DNA from: an uncultured Candidatus Saccharibacteria bacterium
Lineage (GTDB): Bacteria > Patescibacteriota > Minisyncoccia > Phycocordibacterales > SBAW01
Assembly: GCA_964566795.1 (NCBI GenBank)
Contig: CAZMIU010000001.1
Coordinates: forward strand, 79,388-143,387
DNA: 64,000 nt
Direction of reading: 5' to 3'
The position numbers and the translations under genes were made by a program. This document shows positions 11,511 to 44,327 of this stretch, in pieces. The notes beneath the pieces were generated by a model, which was not told where the DNA came from, made no database searches, and worked only from the letters and a program-made list of their open reading frames with translations. Position 1 is the stretch's first letter; each line of letters opens with the position of its first letter.

Positions 11511-11545
11511 AAAGCCCCGCGGGAAACTGCGGGGCTTTTTATTTT
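11511..11545 (+). terminator. rho-independent terminator
   Basis: AGCCCCGCGG-gaaact-GCGGGGCT + TTTTTATTTT. Confidence 0.7.
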
Positions 11546-11559
11546 GATATACTGCGGCA

Positions 11560-12036
11560 ATGGCGGATTCGCTGATTGTCTTTTTGGGCACCTATCTTAT
11601 TTTTGTGATGATCGTGGCCATTGGGGTGTACGGCTTTAGCAGCAACAAGGTGCGCTGGCTGGAGTACGGACTCTCCATAGTGGGAGGGCTTGCGCTTGGC
11701 TACATACTGGCGCGCCTGGGGGGCTTCTTTTTTTACCACGAGCAGCCGTACTCGGTGCTAAACTACACGCCGCTTATCCCGCACGAAATAGACAACGCTT
11801 TTCCTTCAGATCATGCGGTGGTGGCCGGTGTCTTGGCCGCTATCGCAAGTCTCTACAACCGGTCACTAGGGCTCCTCATGTGGTTTCTTGCCTTGGGCGT
11901 TGCCGCAGGTCGCATGCTTGCGGGCGTGCACTACCCACTGGACGTAATCACGGGCCTTATTGTGGGCGGGGTGTGTGCGGCAGCGGCACACTATACAGTT
12001 CATCTCTATTTCAGTAGAAAAACGCATACTAACTAG
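11560..12036 (+). CDS. PAP2-family phosphatase (BcrC/undecaprenyl-diphosphatase-like)
   Basis: PSDHA and GVHYPLDV PAP2 motifs, multi-TM. Confidence 0.75.
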   Translation: MADSLIVFLGTYLIFVMIVAIGVYGFSSNKVRWLEYGLSIVGGLALGYILARLGGFFFYHEQPYSVLNYTPLIPHEIDNAFPSDHAVVAGVLAAIASLYNRSLGLLMWFLALGVAAGRMLAGVHYPLDVITGLIVGGVCAAAAHYTVHLYFSRKTHTN

Positions 12037-12068: not shown

Positions 12069-12314
12069 ATGACACTAGCACTCACCAAGCGCATCGCCGG
12101 CTCTGTTGCGGGCCTTATGCTCGGCACCCTGCTCGCACTCGCAGCTCCCTTAACCTACGCGCAGACCTCTACCACCACTGACCCGGGCACGCCGGGCGTA
12201 CCGGCAACTGGTGCCGGAGACAGCACCATGGCGCTTGTAGCCCTGGCCGGTTCGGCGCTGGCATTAGTTGCCGGTGGTACCTACTTGGCTCGCACTCCCC
12301 GCAGCGAGGCCTAA
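12069..12314 (+). CDS. 81-aa secreted sortase substrate: signal peptide + VPATG sorting motif + hydrophobic anchor + RTPRSEA tail
   Basis: tripartite cell-wall sorting signal directly after signal peptide; sits immediately upstream of sortase. Confidence 0.55.
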   Translation: MTLALTKRIAGSVAGLMLGTLLALAAPLTYAQTSTTTDPGTPGVPATGAGDSTMALVALAGSALALVAGGTYLARTPRSEA

Positions 12315-12317
12315 CCC

Positions 12318-12923
12318 ATGCAGCACAGAGGTGTGCGCATAGCAGTCATACTCATGATGATAGCGGCGGGCGTGGTGTTTGTAACCACGCTCGTTCGCGC
12401 TACCCTCTATGCGCCCTCCGGCGAGGTGGCCTCTAGCACCTTGGCTGCGCTTGCACCCGCGCGCGAGGCGAGCGCGGGCGATTTGCCAGAGCGTCTGCGT
12501 ATCCCCGCGCTTTCTATAAACGCATATGTGCGGCACGTGGGCATTAATGCCGATGGCGACATGGCAACGCCCGGCAACTTTACCGACGTCGGGTGGTACA
12601 AATACGGCACAGTGCCCGGCTTTGTGGGCAGTGCGGTCATGGACGGCCACGTGGACAACGGACTCTCGCGCAACGGCGTGTTTAAAAATCTAAGCCAGCT
12701 TAAGGTGGGAGATGAGCTGTTTGTAGACACTGCATCATCAACCGTGCTGCGCTTTGTCGTGCGCGAGGTTGTCTCCTATCCCGTGGGGGAGGTCCCGGCC
12801 GAGAGGATATTTACCACACGAGGCGGCGTGTACCTAAACCTTATTACCTGCGACGGTGTGTTTAACAAAACGGCCAACGACTATGAGAGCCGCTTGGTAG
12901 TGTATGCCGAGCTGGTGCCTTAG
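12318..12923 (+). CDS. membrane-anchored sortase (class E/F-like transpeptidase)
   Basis: N-terminal TM, GHVD His, LITCDG catalytic Cys motif, C-terminal Arg. Confidence 0.8.
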   Translation: MQHRGVRIAVILMMIAAGVVFVTTLVRATLYAPSGEVASSTLAALAPAREASAGDLPERLRIPALSINAYVRHVGINADGDMATPGNFTDVGWYKYGTVPGFVGSAVMDGHVDNGLSRNGVFKNLSQLKVGDELFVDTASSTVLRFVVREVVSYPVGEVPAERIFTTRGGVYLNLITCDGVFNKTANDYESRLVVYAELVP

Positions 12924-12944: not shown

Positions 12945-15020
12945 TTACTTCTTTAGCTTCGCTAGGGTACGCTCCACGTCGACTATGGAGACGGGCTTGA
13001 CCAGATGCTCGTCAAACCCGGCCTCTGTCGCTTTGTCGCGGTCCTCGTCCTGGCCGTAGCCGGTGAGCGCTACAAGCGATATGTCGTAGCCAAACTGCGC
13101 GCGCAGCCGCTTTGCAACCTCGTAGCCCGATATGTCGGGCAGCCCGATGTCGAGCAACACTACCTGCGGCCTGTGGCGCGAGGCCTCCTCGAGCGCCCCA
13201 AAGCCGGTGTGCGCTATAGCGACCTTGTGCCCGTTGTGCGTGAGCAGGGTCGAGAGCATGGTCGCTGCGGTCTCGTTGTCGTCTACAACCAAGACCCCTA
13301 TAGGCCCGGCCGCTTGTGCATGCACCATCATTGCCTCCGCAGAAAAGCGCTCGCGCGGCTGCTTGAGCCCTGCATCAAGTACGGGAGCTGCTGCTGGCGC
13401 CAGCGTGGTGGGTGCGGGCAAGCGCACCACAAAGGTGCTGCCGGTGCCTATGGTGCTCTCTACAACAACCCTGCCCTGATGCAGCTCTACCATGCGCTTA
13501 ACCAGAGAGAGGCCTATATGGAGGCCGCCGGGGCCCTCCTGGCGCTGCACACCCCCGGCAAAAGGCTCGAATATCTTTTGCATGCGCTCAGAGGCTATGC
13601 CTTGGCCGTTGTCGCGCACCTCAACAACCGCCTCCTGTCCCTCGCGGCGCGCGACAAGCTCAATGGCACCGCCCTGTGGGGTATACTTGGCCGCGTTGTT
13701 GAGAAGGTTTACAAACACCTGGGCCAGCCTCACCGGGTCTGCGTCGATCCAGATAGTCTCGTGCGCAACTGTCTTGGTAAAGGAGTGGTTGCGCGAGGAG
13801 AGGTAGGGCAGCGCCATCTCAAGCGAGCGGTCAATGATATCCTGGAGCCGCACTGTCTCGGGCCGGAGCGTAAACTTTTTTTGCGAGATACGGGTCATGT
13901 CCAGCAGGTCGTCAAGCAGGCGGGCCAGGGTGTTTAGGTGCGCGCCCATCATGTGGTGCACCTCCTTGGAGCCCTGTTCGCGCAGTTTAAGCAGTTCGAG
14001 CCCGGAGAGCACCGGGGAGAGCGGGTTTCTGAGCTCGTGGGCGAGTATTGCTATAAACTCGCTCTTGGCCTGATCCTCGCTTGCCACTTTCTCGAGCGTG
14101 CCCTCAAGCTGGCCCACATGCGTCTCGAGCGCCTTGACCGCCTCTTTGCGCTCCTCGGTTATGGAGGTAAAGAGGATAAATATGAGCGAGAGCGTGCCGA
14201 TAATCATCTGCACGCCAAACAGGGCTTTGGTGGCACTTGCGCTAACCGGCCCGTACCCCCAGAGTATCCCCGATATGCCTATGACCGCGAGCATAAACAG
14301 CGCCAGCGCCGTGCCGCGCGGACCGGCGCGCAGGGATATCCAGATAAGCGGGAAGATGAGTATATAGATGAGCGATATGCCTGCGATGGAGCCGTGCGGG
14401 GTCCAAAACATAAGGAAGACGAGTACAAATATTGAGCCAAACATCGCCACGCCCTCAAGCACTTCCCGCCACGTCTTTTTAAACCACGGGCGGTACCCCC
14501 AGCGCAGGACAAACGGGCCAAACGAGAGCAGGGAGACCGCGTGGCCCACCCATAGCCCGACCCATAACTCCAGCTTCCACACGCCGGTGTAGAGGAGCGC
14601 GGCACTCCCCGCTATGGCAAGTGCCGATATAAACGTTGCGACAAAAGCTGCGAGTATGAGCGCCAGGCTGTCGCGCAACCTGCTCATAAGCGGATGAAAG
14701 CTAAAGCGCACAAGAATGTAGGAGGCGATACATGCTTCGAGCGTGTTGCTTGCCGCAAGCGCTGCGGCAAGCGGCGTGTCGTAGCCCTGCACGACAAACG
14801 TCACAAACAGCGAGAGCACAAGCGCCGGCCACAGGTTGATACCCCAAAACAAGAGCCCGGCGAGGCCCACTGCAGAGACGGGCCACACGAGCGTGGCGCC
14901 AGAGGAGCCTGCCGGCAAAAAAGTGAGGCTCAGCCATGCCACGCCGGCGTACAGGAGCCCCATGAGGATAAAACGCGCCACATAGGTGAGCGCCGGGTTG
15001 TTGGGGAAAAATGGTTGCAT
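12945..15020 (-). CDS. hybrid sensor histidine kinase (MASE1-like membrane domain, HisKA, HATPase, C-terminal receiver)
   Basis: H-box AHELRNPLS, NLLNNAAKYTP, DNGQGI, then receiver VVDDN..LDIGLPD..K. Confidence 0.85.
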   Translation of the reverse strand: MQPFFPNNPALTYVARFILMGLLYAGVAWLSLTFLPAGSSGATLVWPVSAVGLAGLLFWGINLWPALVLSLFVTFVVQGYDTPLAAALAASNTLEACIASYILVRFSFHPLMSRLRDSLALILAAFVATFISALAIAGSAALLYTGVWKLELWVGLWVGHAVSLLSFGPFVLRWGYRPWFKKTWREVLEGVAMFGSIFVLVFLMFWTPHGSIAGISLIYILIFPLIWISLRAGPRGTALALFMLAVIGISGILWGYGPVSASATKALFGVQMIIGTLSLIFILFTSITEERKEAVKALETHVGQLEGTLEKVASEDQAKSEFIAILAHELRNPLSPVLSGLELLKLREQGSKEVHHMMGAHLNTLARLLDDLLDMTRISQKKFTLRPETVRLQDIIDRSLEMALPYLSSRNHSFTKTVAHETIWIDADPVRLAQVFVNLLNNAAKYTPQGGAIELVARREGQEAVVEVRDNGQGIASERMQKIFEPFAGGVQRQEGPGGLHIGLSLVKRMVELHQGRVVVESTIGTGSTFVVRLPAPTTLAPAAAPVLDAGLKQPRERFSAEAMMVHAQAAGPIGVLVVDDNETAATMLSTLLTHNGHKVAIAHTGFGALEEASRHRPQVVLLDIGLPDISGYEVAKRLRAQFGYDISLVALTGYGQDEDRDKATEAGFDEHLVKPVSIVDVERTLAKLKK

Positions 15021-15182: not shown

Positions 15183-15362
15183 TTAGTAAACTAAGCTGGA
15201 GTGCTCTTCCACCACCTCCTTAAACCTCTCTGCGAGCACAGGATGGTTGTGGTTGATATGGTTGTACATGCGCACCTTGAGCATAAGCATCTTGTGCTCG
15301 GAGTCTATCTCCTCGTGGCCGCACTCGCTGCAGGTCAGTATTATTTCTCGCTCGTGTTGCAT
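15183..15362 (-). CDS. 59-aa His/Cys-rich small protein, hypothetical
   Basis: MQHEREIILTCSECGHEEIDSEHK..NHINHNHP; ATG 15362; own downstream terminator; not in track. Confidence 0.25.
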   Translation of the reverse strand: MQHEREIILTCSECGHEEIDSEHKMLMLKVRMYNHINHNHPVLAERFKEVVEEHSSLVY

Positions 15363-15401: not shown

Positions 15402-15644
15402 TTATTCGCCCGAGTCTTCGCCGTATCCGTCGCCCGGGGAGTAAAACTCTATATCTTGTGCATTGCGCTCGGCGTCGTGCTTGGCCTGCTCGAGCCTCGT
15501 GTGCTCGCGCGCTTCCGGCGTCTGTTGCTCTGCCTCCACCTTCATATCCTCGTCTATCTGCTTGGGGTCATTAAGGCTCCCATATATCCACAACAGGAGT
15601 ATTGCTACGCCCACGAGCCCTACGATTATCAGGGCTATATCCAT
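15402..15644 (-). CDS. small membrane-anchored acidic protein, hypothetical
   Basis: track start is GTG; first ATG gives MDIALIIVGL.. TM then acidic tail. Confidence 0.4.
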   Translation of the reverse strand: MDIALIIVGLVGVAILLLWIYGSLNDPKQIDEDMKVEAEQQTPEAREHTRLEQAKHDAERNAQDIEFYSPGDGYGEDSGE

Positions 15645-15744
15645 GCCCACAGCATACCATATGGGGTTCTCACAAGAGCATCAGGAGTGATGCGGTATAT
15701 ATGGTTGTATGGAACGCCACATACACACAAACGAAGGGTCGCAT

Positions 15745-15946: not shown

Positions 15947-16756
15947 ATGAACAGGGGTTACATAGCAAGGCTCATACTGGTCGCGGTGCTTCTTGTTGGC
16001 GCGTCGCCGGTGTCTGCCGCAGGCGTGGTCGAGCAAAACGGCCGCCCTTCGGGCAACTGGTCTGGGTATGTGGCCTCGCGCGACACCTACACAGGCGTGG
16101 GTGCCACATGGGTGGTGCCCGCGGTTGCGGCCACCACAACTCTTATGAGCGATGTGGCGTGGGTGGGCATCGGGGGCTCAAAAACAAAGGATCTTATCCA
16201 GGCGGGCACGCACGGAGCGGTCCAAAACGGCCAGACGCAGTACTGGGCGTGGTACGAGCTCTTGCCCGCGTACCAGGTAGTTATACCGGTTGCTGTTGCG
16301 GCAGGAGACGAGGTTGAGGTGGCCCTGCAGGAAATTGCACGCGACCTGTGGTATCTCTCGTTTATAAACAAGAGCACGGGGCAGAGCTACTTTACGACAC
16401 TCGAGTATCACTCCAAACGCAGCTCGGCCGAGTGGATAGAGGAGATGCCCAACGTGTATGGCAGGGAGGGCGGCCGCATTTTTGCGCCGCTGAGCGAGTT
16501 TGAGCGCGTGGAGTTTACGGAGGCCTTTGCGGTTATCAATGGCGAGCGGCGCAGCCTTGCGGACATCAAGTCAAGCGCAGTGTCTATGGTGGCCAAAAAC
16601 AACAAGCGGCTTGTGCTGGCCGCACCGTCGGGCGTAACCCCTCAAAGCTCGTTTGTGGTTACGCGCTCAAGCGCGGTGCCGAGCCCCATGACCAAGCAAA
16701 CTATGAAGCAGTACCGCGCCTCGGCGCACGACATTGTGTGGTCCCTGCCCCGGTAA
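15947..16756 (+). CDS. peptidase family G1 (eqolisin / scytalidoglutamic peptidase) homolog, secreted
   Basis: signal peptide; SGNWSGYV, VAWVGIGG, LIQAGT (Gln), YWAWYELLP (Glu), AEWIEE blocks matching the fungal G1 fold. Confidence 0.7.
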   Translation: MNRGYIARLILVAVLLVGASPVSAAGVVEQNGRPSGNWSGYVASRDTYTGVGATWVVPAVAATTTLMSDVAWVGIGGSKTKDLIQAGTHGAVQNGQTQYWAWYELLPAYQVVIPVAVAAGDEVEVALQEIARDLWYLSFINKSTGQSYFTTLEYHSKRSSAEWIEEMPNVYGREGGRIFAPLSEFERVEFTEAFAVINGERRSLADIKSSAVSMVAKNNKRLVLAAPSGVTPQSSFVVTRSSAVPSPMTKQTMKQYRASAHDIVWSLPR

Positions 16757-43436: not shown

Positions 43437-44327
43437 TTACCCCTTGCCGCCGAAGTCGTCGATCATGAAGCTGACCGATGACCCGCCAACGAAGGTGATG
43501 TCGATCTGGAGGTCGGTGTTGATGTAGCGCATATCCTCGCCATTAACCCCGGTCTGCGTGAGGCTGTAGTTGCCCCCGTAGATCAGCACAGTGTCGCCAA
43601 GGTCGCCGTTCTTAAGGATAATCTCGCCGACCGCGCCGTCCGACCAAGAGTCGAGCCGCACCCGGTCGTTGCCGTCCAGGTAGTTGCCGAACTGGATCGT
43701 ATCACCAACCGACGCGTAGAACACGTCGTCGCCCTGGCCGCCGCGCATGATGTCGGCACCTTGACCGCCGTACAGCGTGTCCTTGCCCGCATCGCCCCAG
43801 AGCTTGTCGTCGCCACGACCACCTTGCAGGTAGTCGTCGCCGGTGCCGCCATGGAGCTCGTCGTCGCCAGCGTAGGCGACGATTGTGTCGTCGCCCGAGC
43901 CACCAAAGACGATGTTGTCGCCGCCGGCGTCCTCGCGGGCGTAGGAGTACCAGTAGGTCTCGACGACACCGTCTTGGTTGACGATCTCGTACGAGGCCCA
44001 CACCAGCTCAACGCCAACCCGGATGTAGTCGTTGCCGGACCCGCCGTTGACGAAGTTGTCGCCGGTGCCCGCCTCCAGTATGTCGTCGCCCGAGCCGAGG
44101 CTCAGGTAGTTATCGCCGTCGCCGACGTAGATCTGGTCGTGGCCAGAACCGCCATAGATGCGGTTACTGCCTTGATTGCCGAAGATGATGTCGTCTCCGG
44201 CAAAGCCAAAGATGGTGTCATCCCCGGCAAAGCCGTAGAGCGCGTCTTTCTGCGACGTGCCGTACAGGGTCAGCGCAGTTGCAGCGGGCTTCATCGGTAA
44301 GGATGTACCGGTGCTTGTAGGTGTCAT
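43437..44327 (-). CDS. RTX-type (hemolysin-type) calcium-binding repeat protein
   Basis: at least seven GGxGxDx nonapeptide repeats (GGSGNDYI, GGSGDDTI, GGTGDDYL, GGRGDDKL, GDAGKDTL, GGQGADIM, GGQGDDVF); no N-terminal signal peptide. Confidence 0.7.
   Translation of the reverse strand: MTPTSTGTSLPMKPAATALTLYGTSQKDALYGFAGDDTIFGFAGDDIIFGNQGSNRIYGGSGHDQIYVGDGDNYLSLGSGDDILEAGTGDNFVNGGSGNDYIRVGVELVWASYEIVNQDGVVETYWYSYAREDAGGDNIVFGGSGDDTIVAYAGDDELHGGTGDDYLQGGRGDDKLWGDAGKDTLYGGQGADIMRGGQGDDVFYASVGDTIQFGNYLDGNDRVRLDSWSDGAVGEIILKNGDLGDTVLIYGGNYSLTQTGVNGEDMRYINTDLQIDITFVGGSSVSFMIDDFGGKG

Follow-up and report, generated by a model that had tools for sequence, protein, structure and literature searches.

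A class-F-like sortase gene paired with the gene of a predicted cargo-less substrate in a patescibacterial genome

Background

Sortases are common in bacteria of the candidate phyla radiation (CPR; PMC6744442), and the physiological roles of the class F sortases, whose family model is the best match to the enzyme treated here, were described as unknown in 2026 (PMC13251363). The subject of this work is a pair of genes at positions 12,069 to 12,923 of a 64,000-nucleotide stretch of DNA from an uncultured Candidatus Saccharibacteria bacterium (the whole stretch, 64 kb, is called the window below), in which a membrane-anchored, class-F-like sortase is encoded directly behind a small open reading frame (ORF) of 81 codons, the product of which appears to consist of little more than a signal peptide and a sorting signal.

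With the class F sortases (SrtF of Cutibacterium acnes and the SrtF paralogues of Streptomyces and Actinoplanes) the enzyme shares an N-terminal anchor, a His-Cys-Arg triad and an LPXTG-type motif, but its host is a CPR bacterium instead of an actinobacterium, the motif is of the form [VAT]PxTG-AGG, and each enzyme comes with its own adjacent substrate. A sortase encoded beside its own substrate with a variant motif is also found in class B (SrtB-IsdC and SrtB-AbpA) and among class D enzymes with their sporulation substrates; for AbpA-SrtB, a locus of this kind is described (PMC4974636). The substrates in the two class B systems bear a functional domain (for haem and amylase binding), whereas here there are only 10-30 low-complexity residues. 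As in pilins and their class C sortases, glycines follow the TG, and class C tops the fold search with the enzyme; unlike in pilins, there is no pilin-motif Lys, there are no folded pilin domains (the mature part counting 16 residues) and the enzyme has no lid motif.

If the Thr-rich peptide is glycosylated, the nearest functional analogy would possibly be GspA of Actinomyces oris, likewise a sortase substrate, the main role of which seems to be the carriage of glycan to the wall; GspA is modified by LcpA, is linked to this LCP enzyme, and runs as a monomer at the ~25-kDa marker on SDS-PAGE (PMC6381275). Unlike GspA, the micro-substrate is not consistently linked to an LCP enzyme or a glycosyltransferase: no family of either kind recurs in 20 distant loci (the window was not scanned whole for LCP), and a GT4 glycosyltransferase gene lies near the pair only in the close clade. 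The first-pass annotation had called the peptide likely O-glycosylatable, for which these neighbourhoods offer no support. Like the small ORF, actinobacterial SafA is hydrophobic, very small and encoded at a conserved place beside a sortase gene; it has 52 aa and one transmembrane (TM) segment, and it guards the sortase against signal peptidase (PMC9282373). The SafA gene, however, follows that of a class E sortase, and SafA, which is no sortase substrate, has the motifs PGP and FPW and lacks a sorting signal; the small ORF differs in gene order, in size, in motifs and in having a sorting signal. Finally, in streptococci the C-peptides released by sortase can signal to a histidine kinase (PMC11502775).

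The small ORF and its protein family

The pair is read here, with a probability of roughly 0.6 and on the basis of sequence comparison, as a dedicated two-gene sortase module, in which a cargo-less substrate would supply a short, lysine-free, Thr-rich peptide for attachment to peptidoglycan. The features on which this reading draws are the following (all on the + strand; the kind of evidence is given in brackets).

12069..12314, +: gene of the 81-aa micro-substrate, TAA stop included (ORF, homologues, alignment, substitution rates)
12069..12161, +: signal peptide, residues 1-31, with K7R8, a hydrophobic core and PLTYA/Q, the slash marking the predicted cleavage site (alignment, pN/pS)
12162..12209, +: predicted mature peptide Q32-T47, QTSTTTDPGTPGVPAT (alignment, family comparison)
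12198..12212, +: VPATG pentapeptide V44-G48, predicted LPXTG-type sortase recognition site (conservation, motif counts)
12228..12311, +: hydrophobic anchor M54-A74 and basic tail RTPRSEA, R75-A81 (sequence, pN/pS)
12318..12923, +: 201-aa membrane-anchored sortase, class-F-like, TAG stop, TM helix at about residues 7-29 (Pfam, NCBIfam, alignment, AF2)
12648-12650, 12849-12851 and 12891-12893, +: sortase catalytic codons for His111, Cys178 and Arg192, respectively

Both ORFs lie where the first-pass annotation had placed them, and the signal peptide, the segment of ~16 residues, VPATG, the anchor and the RTPRSEA tail can all be read as it had described; the spacing between the genes, which it had given as 4 nt, is in fact 3 nt (CCC), and the sortase gene is in frame with the small ORF. 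The signal peptide has an n-region (K7R8), an h-region (I9-A26) and a c-region (P27-L-T-Y-A31/Q32, with Thr at -3 and Ala at -1), and the predicted mature segment behind it is 16 aa long, rich in Thr and Pro and without Lys. Read from the sequences, a tripartite sorting signal combined with an N-terminal signal peptide is thus present in the small ORF and kept across its family. A peptide, TTPGVPATGAGD, was conceived as a sortase test substrate for this sorting signal. When the window was scanned in six frames with a regular expression for sorting signals, the small ORF was found together with one weak SAPTA match in an uncalled ORF, and with a hidden Markov model of the family it was the sole match; a Pfam search of the 81-aa protein returned no match.

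In a collection of 5.8 billion proteins the small ORF has 37 homologues of 66-88 aa (54-96% identity), of which those with a name belong to Candidatus Adlerbacteria or Paceibacterota and are without functional annotation. Among the four genomes compared, the signal-peptide block has a proportion of changed nonsynonymous sites (pN) of 0.07-0.16 and a proportion of changed synonymous sites (pS) of 0.46-0.74; for the sorting-signal block the values are 0.21-0.32 and 0.63-0.79, respectively. With synonymous sites saturated and pN low, the small ORF must be a translated gene under purifying selection at the amino-acid level, and the same saturation rules out a constraint on RNA or DNA as the cause of the conserved N-terminus. 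In the alignment of the homologues the signal peptide is nearly invariant within the close clade, P45 and G48 are invariant, and T47 is kept in at least 90%. Homologues, alignment and selection therefore bear out the earlier description of the small ORF as a conserved, translated gene with a tripartite signal.

The family extends well beyond the close clade. A profile built from 36 aligned sequences was run against 1.84 billion cluster representatives, no word index being used, and matched 227 clusters (50% identity) at E<=0.001; among the best 149 of these 227, 104 are at most 95 aa long and only 8 exceed 140 aa. The usual plan is a signal peptide ending in A-x-A/Q-T, a Thr-rich stretch, the sorting motif, a hydrophobic helix and a basic tail, with TPG-[VAT]-P-[NSDTA]-T-G-[AV]-G-G-[DN] as the consensus motif. 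The Thr-rich linker varies from 2 to 20 residues and the predicted mature peptide from 10 (QTTTPGVP(N/D/S)T, e.g. QTTTPGVPNT) to ~30 residues, a drift in length that is expected of a spacer or a decoration and not of a folded domain. Thr makes up 37% of the predicted mature segments of the micro-forms, and Lys occurs in 0 of 91 micro-forms. In six members (P0200, P0216, P0217, P0240, P0257 and P0264) a second, internal TPG-x-P-N-T-G copy stands a few to ~20 residues before the terminal one, which could be either a slippage duplication or an alternative cleavage site.

One might object that such a small ORF is a functionless, decaying remnant of the gene for a larger surface protein, all the more since larger, cargo-bearing substrates hold the same position beside homologous sortases and outright remnants do occur (in loci L049 and L055, see below). 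Both halves of the small ORF are nevertheless under purifying selection, and more than 100 clusters (50% identity) keep the cargo-less plan with an intact frame and motif, so that decay can hardly be credited. No larger protein of the close clade that detectably shares the signal of the small ORF was found in the searches of the protein collection and of the cluster representatives.

In the wider family the signal peptides diverge freely, while the A-x-A/Q-T site and the sorting motif persist; at this conserved cleavage site, positions -3 and -1 are occupied by small residues, Q-T stands at +1/+2, and a helix breaker is found near -5 or -6. This bears on a second alternative, namely that the N-terminal segment is an uncleaved signal anchor and that T47 is joined to peptidoglycan, so that the protein would tether the membrane to the wall through a linker of 10-30 residues, in the manner of Braun's lipoprotein. 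The strong amino-acid constraint on the N-terminal hydrophobic segment in the close clade would fit such an anchor, and the very short exoplasmic segment would suit a spacer. Against this, the signal-peptidase site is kept in most of the broad family despite diverged cores, which argues that cleavage is selected, and a tether seems quite improbable.

The sortase

The identity of the downstream gene, which the first-pass annotation had derived from the His and Cys motifs and the N-terminal TM helix, is supported by a Pfam match, invariant residues and a structural model alike. The protein matches Pfam PF04203 with 71.7 bits (cutoff 26.6, E 6e-20). In 45 sortase homologues G110-H111-V112-D113, T177-C178, G180 and R192 are invariant, and with H111, C178 of a TLITC-type motif and R192 among them the protein has the His-Cys-Arg triad of the sortase superfamily. 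The AF2 model, made on the homologue alignment, has a mean pLDDT of 89 and shows the sortase barrel preceded by a helix at the N-terminus (residues 2-30). Foldseek matches of this model to solved sortases are numerous, with E-values of 1e-10 to 1e-8; class C ranks first, but the E-values of class A and class E differ from it by no more than about one log, so that the structure leaves the class undecided. The matches obtained by searching the PDB with the sequence are remote (E ~1e-5), and there is no solved class F structure among them. A DP[WFY] lid motif is not found in the sortase sequence.

Just outside the TM helix, at window positions 12378-12416 (sortase residues 21-33), F21, T24, A28 and P33 are nearly invariant in the 45 homologues, with the consensus TLVRAxxYAP. 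This stretch resembles the PLTYA/Q of the substrate, but the Pro at +1 would block signal peptidase; in the SafA system, by comparison, signal-peptidase cleavage of the sortase is regulated.

Conservation and loss of the pairing

Relatives of the sortase were taken from one genome per GTDB species, which gave 41 loci at 33-55% identity (37 of them from Patescibacteria). In 21/37 Paceibacteria loci the gene just 5' of the sortase, in the same orientation, codes for a protein with the sorting signal, and in 24/37 such a gene is at most 1.4 kb away. In the closer relatives (L050, L051, L052 and L053) the small ORF is immediately 5' of the sortase gene in 4/4, and the distant micro-forms P0190, P0230, P0288 and P0161, which came from the profile search, adjoin a sortase gene in 4/4 as well. 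For at least eight more pairs of a small-ORF homologue and a sortase homologue, the lengths of their contigs agree. The first-pass annotation had proposed a search of related genomes for the pairing and had named its absence from relatives as what would speak against the idea; the pairing is instead kept in most. Pfam finds extra sortase paralogues near the pair in 3/20 loci, and at L058 a micro-substrate (844-1050, +) lies between two sortase genes, one divergent (53-637, -) and one downstream (1102-1503, +). No other protein family recurs beside the pair in the 20 distant loci, the maximum being 4 of 147 neighbours (VTT domain). What is conserved is thus a unit of substrate and sortase, with the cargo-less form as one of the states in which the substrate commonly occurs. 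The earlier view that such a pair is unusual holds for the searchable literature, searches of which turned up neither a cargo-less sortase substrate nor the small-protein family (subscription-only papers were outside the scope); it does not hold for Paceibacteria, in which, with 227 clusters at 50% identity, the pair is very common.

The module is not universal, as can be seen from loci in which one or both of its parts have been lost. The genes needed to follow this are:

11560..12036, +: 158-aa PAP2 phosphatase of the window (Pfam PAP2 2.6e-17)
12945..15020, -: convergent MASE1-HisKA-HATPase-receiver hybrid kinase of the window (syntenic in the close clade only)
L049:9905-9997, +: remnant of the small ORF (signal-peptide part)
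L055:1364-1471, +: 35-codon remnant of the small ORF, between PAP2 and MASE1 kinase

A metagenome scan with the small-protein alignment, which yielded one usable peptide pattern, returned 4 loci, including the remnants L054 and L055. The first of these matches only residues 1-32 of the small ORF. At L055 the sortase is absent while PAP2 and kinase are kept, which is consistent with a single deletion that would have taken the sorting signal and the sortase together. The module is therefore accessory and sometimes lost, and a sortase can be kept where no substrate is encoded beside it.

Several results count against the reading of the pair as a dedicated module with a cell wall substrate. The small ORF reaches only 14.3 bits with TIGR01167 (LPXTG_anchor), for which the cutoff is 15.9, and it is not classed as a strict member of that family. 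The best NCBIfam model for the sortase, class F (NF033748; E 2e-36), gives 125 bits, below the cutoff of 166; the next class, class E, follows at 3e-7 and 30 bits, and the homologues P0084, P0102 and P0155 (47-65% identity) carry the NCBI name class F sortase, so that the enzyme is, judged from its sequence, best labelled class-F-like and not a strict class F member. The closest GTDB sortases (L008 and L009, 55% identity) have the same PAP2-sortase-kinase synteny with no room for the small ORF, and at L049 an intact sortase (69% identity) stands beside a 30-codon remnant of it (MGIVIKRIAGGMLGLMIGTLLALAMPLVYV, followed by a stop). Since in these three loci the sortase occurs without an intact small ORF, it either acts on other substrates or can do without any. 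Finally, in the same genome pairs of the close clade, the pN of the catalytic domain of the sortase (0.17-0.22) is higher than that of the signal-peptide block (0.07-0.16). A stronger constraint on the signal peptide than on the sortase domain is odd for a disposable export signal and hints that pieces retained in the membrane may matter.

This last point leads to the alternative that the membrane-retained by-products are what counts, i.e. that a function in the membrane belongs to the N-terminal helix, whether or not it is cleaved, or to the C-terminal peptide that sortase cleavage leaves behind. Such a piece would act either as a SafA-like factor or as a C-peptide signal by which the activity of sortase or lipid II would be reported to the MASE1 kinase. 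The N-terminal block is indeed the most constrained part of the pair, the residues past the cleavage site of the sortase (G-AGG-D/N) are unusually conserved, L049 keeps only the N-terminal helix beside its intact sortase, the kinase is a syntenic neighbour in the close clade, and there are precedents for both variants in SafA (PMC9282373) and in C-peptide signalling (PMC11502775). On the other hand, the small ORF, being upstream of the sortase, without FPW or PGP and with two hydrophobic segments, is not a SafA homologue, and in the wider family it is the signal peptides that vary freely while A-x-A/Q-T and the sorting motif stay. The kinase, for its part, is convergent, linked in the close clade only, and kept in L055 after the loss of the pair, and the remnant in L049 has diverged at its start and end, as decay predicts. 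Taken together, a function of the by-products is unlikely.

Substrates with other cargos

The proteins encoded upstream of homologous sortases differ widely in what they carry. Micro-forms of 72-84 aa occur at L012, L014, L015, L018, L019 and L023, and T/S/G-rich substrates of 103-117 aa at L011, L013, L024, L029 and L038. The substrates of L020, L027 and L032 have a longer mature segment of ~170-185 residues, and in those of L025, L028, L030, L031 and L036 a Cys-containing repeat of ~27 residues (FPxGCxSALGYSxTTGxPCNGT) is present three times:

L025:5492-5989: Cys-repeat substrate
L028:4031-4528: Cys-repeat substrate
L030:5492-5974: Cys-repeat substrate
L031:5315-5848: Cys-repeat substrate
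L036:5427-5921: Cys-repeat substrate

A Pfam search of the larger cargos (among the Cys-repeat proteins, those of L025, L030 and L036) gave only weak anchor matches, the cargo-bearing relatives scoring 16.4 against PF00746 (cutoff 20). The Cys repeat may represent an undescribed small, disulfide-bonded, wall-associated domain. The same signal on different cargos upstream of homologous sortases, together with the co-loss in L055, is among the grounds for regarding the pairing as dedicated, and in this respect the first-pass claim of a dedicated sortase with a minimal substrate gains support, as it does from the adjacency of the two genes across many lineages.

What the substrates have in common besides the signal is their lack of Lys: the predicted mature parts of 15 sortase-adjacent substrates (L011, L013, L020, L022, L024, L025, L027-L033, L036 and L038), cargos of 100-184 aa included, total 1,438 residues without a single Lys, against a local background of 6.2%. 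Asp, Glu and Arg are likewise very scarce in these 15. The lack of lysine would mean either that the products are charge-free wall components, or that a side-chain amine is excluded as a competing nucleophile for the sortase.

Lysine also bears on the possibility that the peptides are joined head to tail or cyclised via the alpha-amine of Q32, which would give a Thr-rich polymer (a fibre or a mucin-like coat) or a cyclic peptide. Pilin-type sorting signals have the form IPxTGGxG, which the G-x-G-G after the pentapeptide resembles; moreover, the class C pilus sortases are the best structural neighbours of the enzyme (although class A and E lie within about one log of their E-value), and some family members have tandem internal TPGVPNTG copies. 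The complete absence of Lys, both from the 91 micro-forms and from the 1,438 mature residues of the 15 substrates, speaks against a pilin-type isopeptide chemistry, however, and makes pilin-type polymerisation unlikely as judged from these sequences. As a nucleophile, a Gln at the N-terminus is poor and unstable, since it readily turns into pyroglutamate, by which the amine needed for head-to-tail joining would be blocked; the sortase is without the DP[WFY] lid motif, and the highly variable length of the peptide argues against a specific cyclic product. Joining of the peptides to one another is therefore very improbable.

A side observation concerns the class F sortases of Streptomyces, which are 37% identical to that of the window. 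A neighbouring gene of opposite orientation codes for a protein whose C-terminus comprises KGAKTGLGGS, a hydrophobic helix and RRR; GAKTG may be a non-canonical sorting signal for actinobacterial class F sortases.

L046:4831-5427, -: protein beside a Streptomyces class F sortase
L047:4694-5533, -: protein beside a Streptomyces class F sortase
L048:4738-5604, -: protein beside a Streptomyces class F sortase

Proposed mechanism

The reality and architecture of the genes, the catalytic residues, the adjacency, the signal on other cargos and the peptidoglycan genes of the window are observed; each of the biochemical steps below, as well as the acceptor, we infer from the known chemistry of sortases. 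The 81-aa precursor would be exported by Sec and cleaved by signal peptidase I after TYA31, and would then be retained in the membrane by the C-terminal helix and the RTPRSEA tail. The sortase (Cys178, His111, Arg192) would cut between T47 and G48, forming a thioacyl intermediate with the 16-mer QTSTTTDPGTPGVPAT, which would be passed on to a free amine of lipid II or of a peptidoglycan stem peptide. The wall would thereby come to bear a short peptide, rich in Thr and devoid of charge and of lysine, which may start with a pyroglutamate and may be O-modified. As for the acceptor, two penicillin-binding proteins, a Mur ligase, MurG and an M23 peptidase are encoded in the window, from which it follows that the organism makes peptidoglycan, the usual acceptor of sortases. 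The M23 peptidase has an ASAQT motif at residues 39-43, past a hydrophobic segment.

Genomic context

The PAP2 gene ends 32 nt 5' of the small ORF, and PAP2, small ORF and sortase probably share one transcription unit with PAP2 as its first gene, as far as can be judged from the sequence. A terminator-like site precedes PAP2, such sites being no more numerous in the region than in shuffled sequence according to the same consensus scan:

11511..11538, +: terminator-like hairpin with a 12-bp stem, 8 GC pairs and a T-run, between the gene of a 120-aa membrane protein and PAP2 (consensus scan)
L049:9070-9825, -: BacA/UppP in the place of PAP2

The best NCBIfam matches of PAP2 are undecaprenyl-diphosphate phosphatases, and those of the DedA protein include UptA, all of them below cutoff. 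PAP2 is probably an undecaprenyl-diphosphate phosphatase, BacA in L049 looking like a non-orthologous swap, and its replacement by BacA there fits a role in the recycling of the lipid carrier. Further upstream, on the minus strand, lie genes for PAP2_C, the GT4 glycosyltransferase and a DedA/VTT protein. The first-pass annotation had placed the pair inside an envelope lipid cluster, and its neighbours (PAP2_C, GT4, DedA/VTT and PAP2) are indeed what it had taken them for; the association is limited to the close clade, however (PAP2 synteny extends to L008, L009, L011, L024 and close relatives), and is gone in the 20 distant loci. As none of these families recurs there, a functional tie to the lipid-carrier genes PAP2, DedA and GT4 was set aside, and the lipid-gene neighbourhood is compatible with a lipid II-dependent reaction without being evidence for one.

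Some other genes of the window may be recorded. A Peptidase_A4 gene (G1, acid-protease family; 15947-16756, +) is syntenic beside the kinase in all close relatives, and the small ORFs at 15183-15362 (-) and 15402-15650 (-) belong to a set of 59-82-aa ORFs that are syntenic with the kinase in close relatives. At 43437-44327 (-) a 296-aa RTX nonapeptide-repeat protein is encoded (HemolysinCabind 1.2e-35, 5 stretches), which looks unusual for a small CPR genome.

Conclusions

The accepted role of sortases is the display of functional protein domains or the building of pili; with a substrate like the present one, the peptide itself, or its processing, must be the function. If the peptide is merely a minor surface tag, what has been found is a new protein family, neat in itself but of no broader importance. 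A more far-reaching, rather doubtful possibility is that the Paceibacteria sortase is a wall-modifying ligase that loads the stem peptides with many charge-free, lysine-free, Thr-rich 10-30-mers, possibly O-glycosylated, as a genetically encoded peptide counterpart of a secondary wall polymer. If so, the module would determine the surface properties of the episymbiotic cells and use up those amines of the stem peptides that are otherwise available for cross-linking, and the exclusion of lysine would be a protection from self-ligation by an enzyme that uses a side-chain amine as nucleophile.

Independently of this, the pair provides a class-F-like sortase clade with a concrete cognate substrate and a predicted motif, TPG-[VAT]-P-x-T-G-AGG, and this short, lysine-free motif is a possible tool for sortase-mediated ligation, provided that the enzyme is active. 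For the CPR/Patescibacteria, the wall architecture of which is poorly known and yet central to their host-attached lifestyle, the finding points to an undescribed feature of the envelope.

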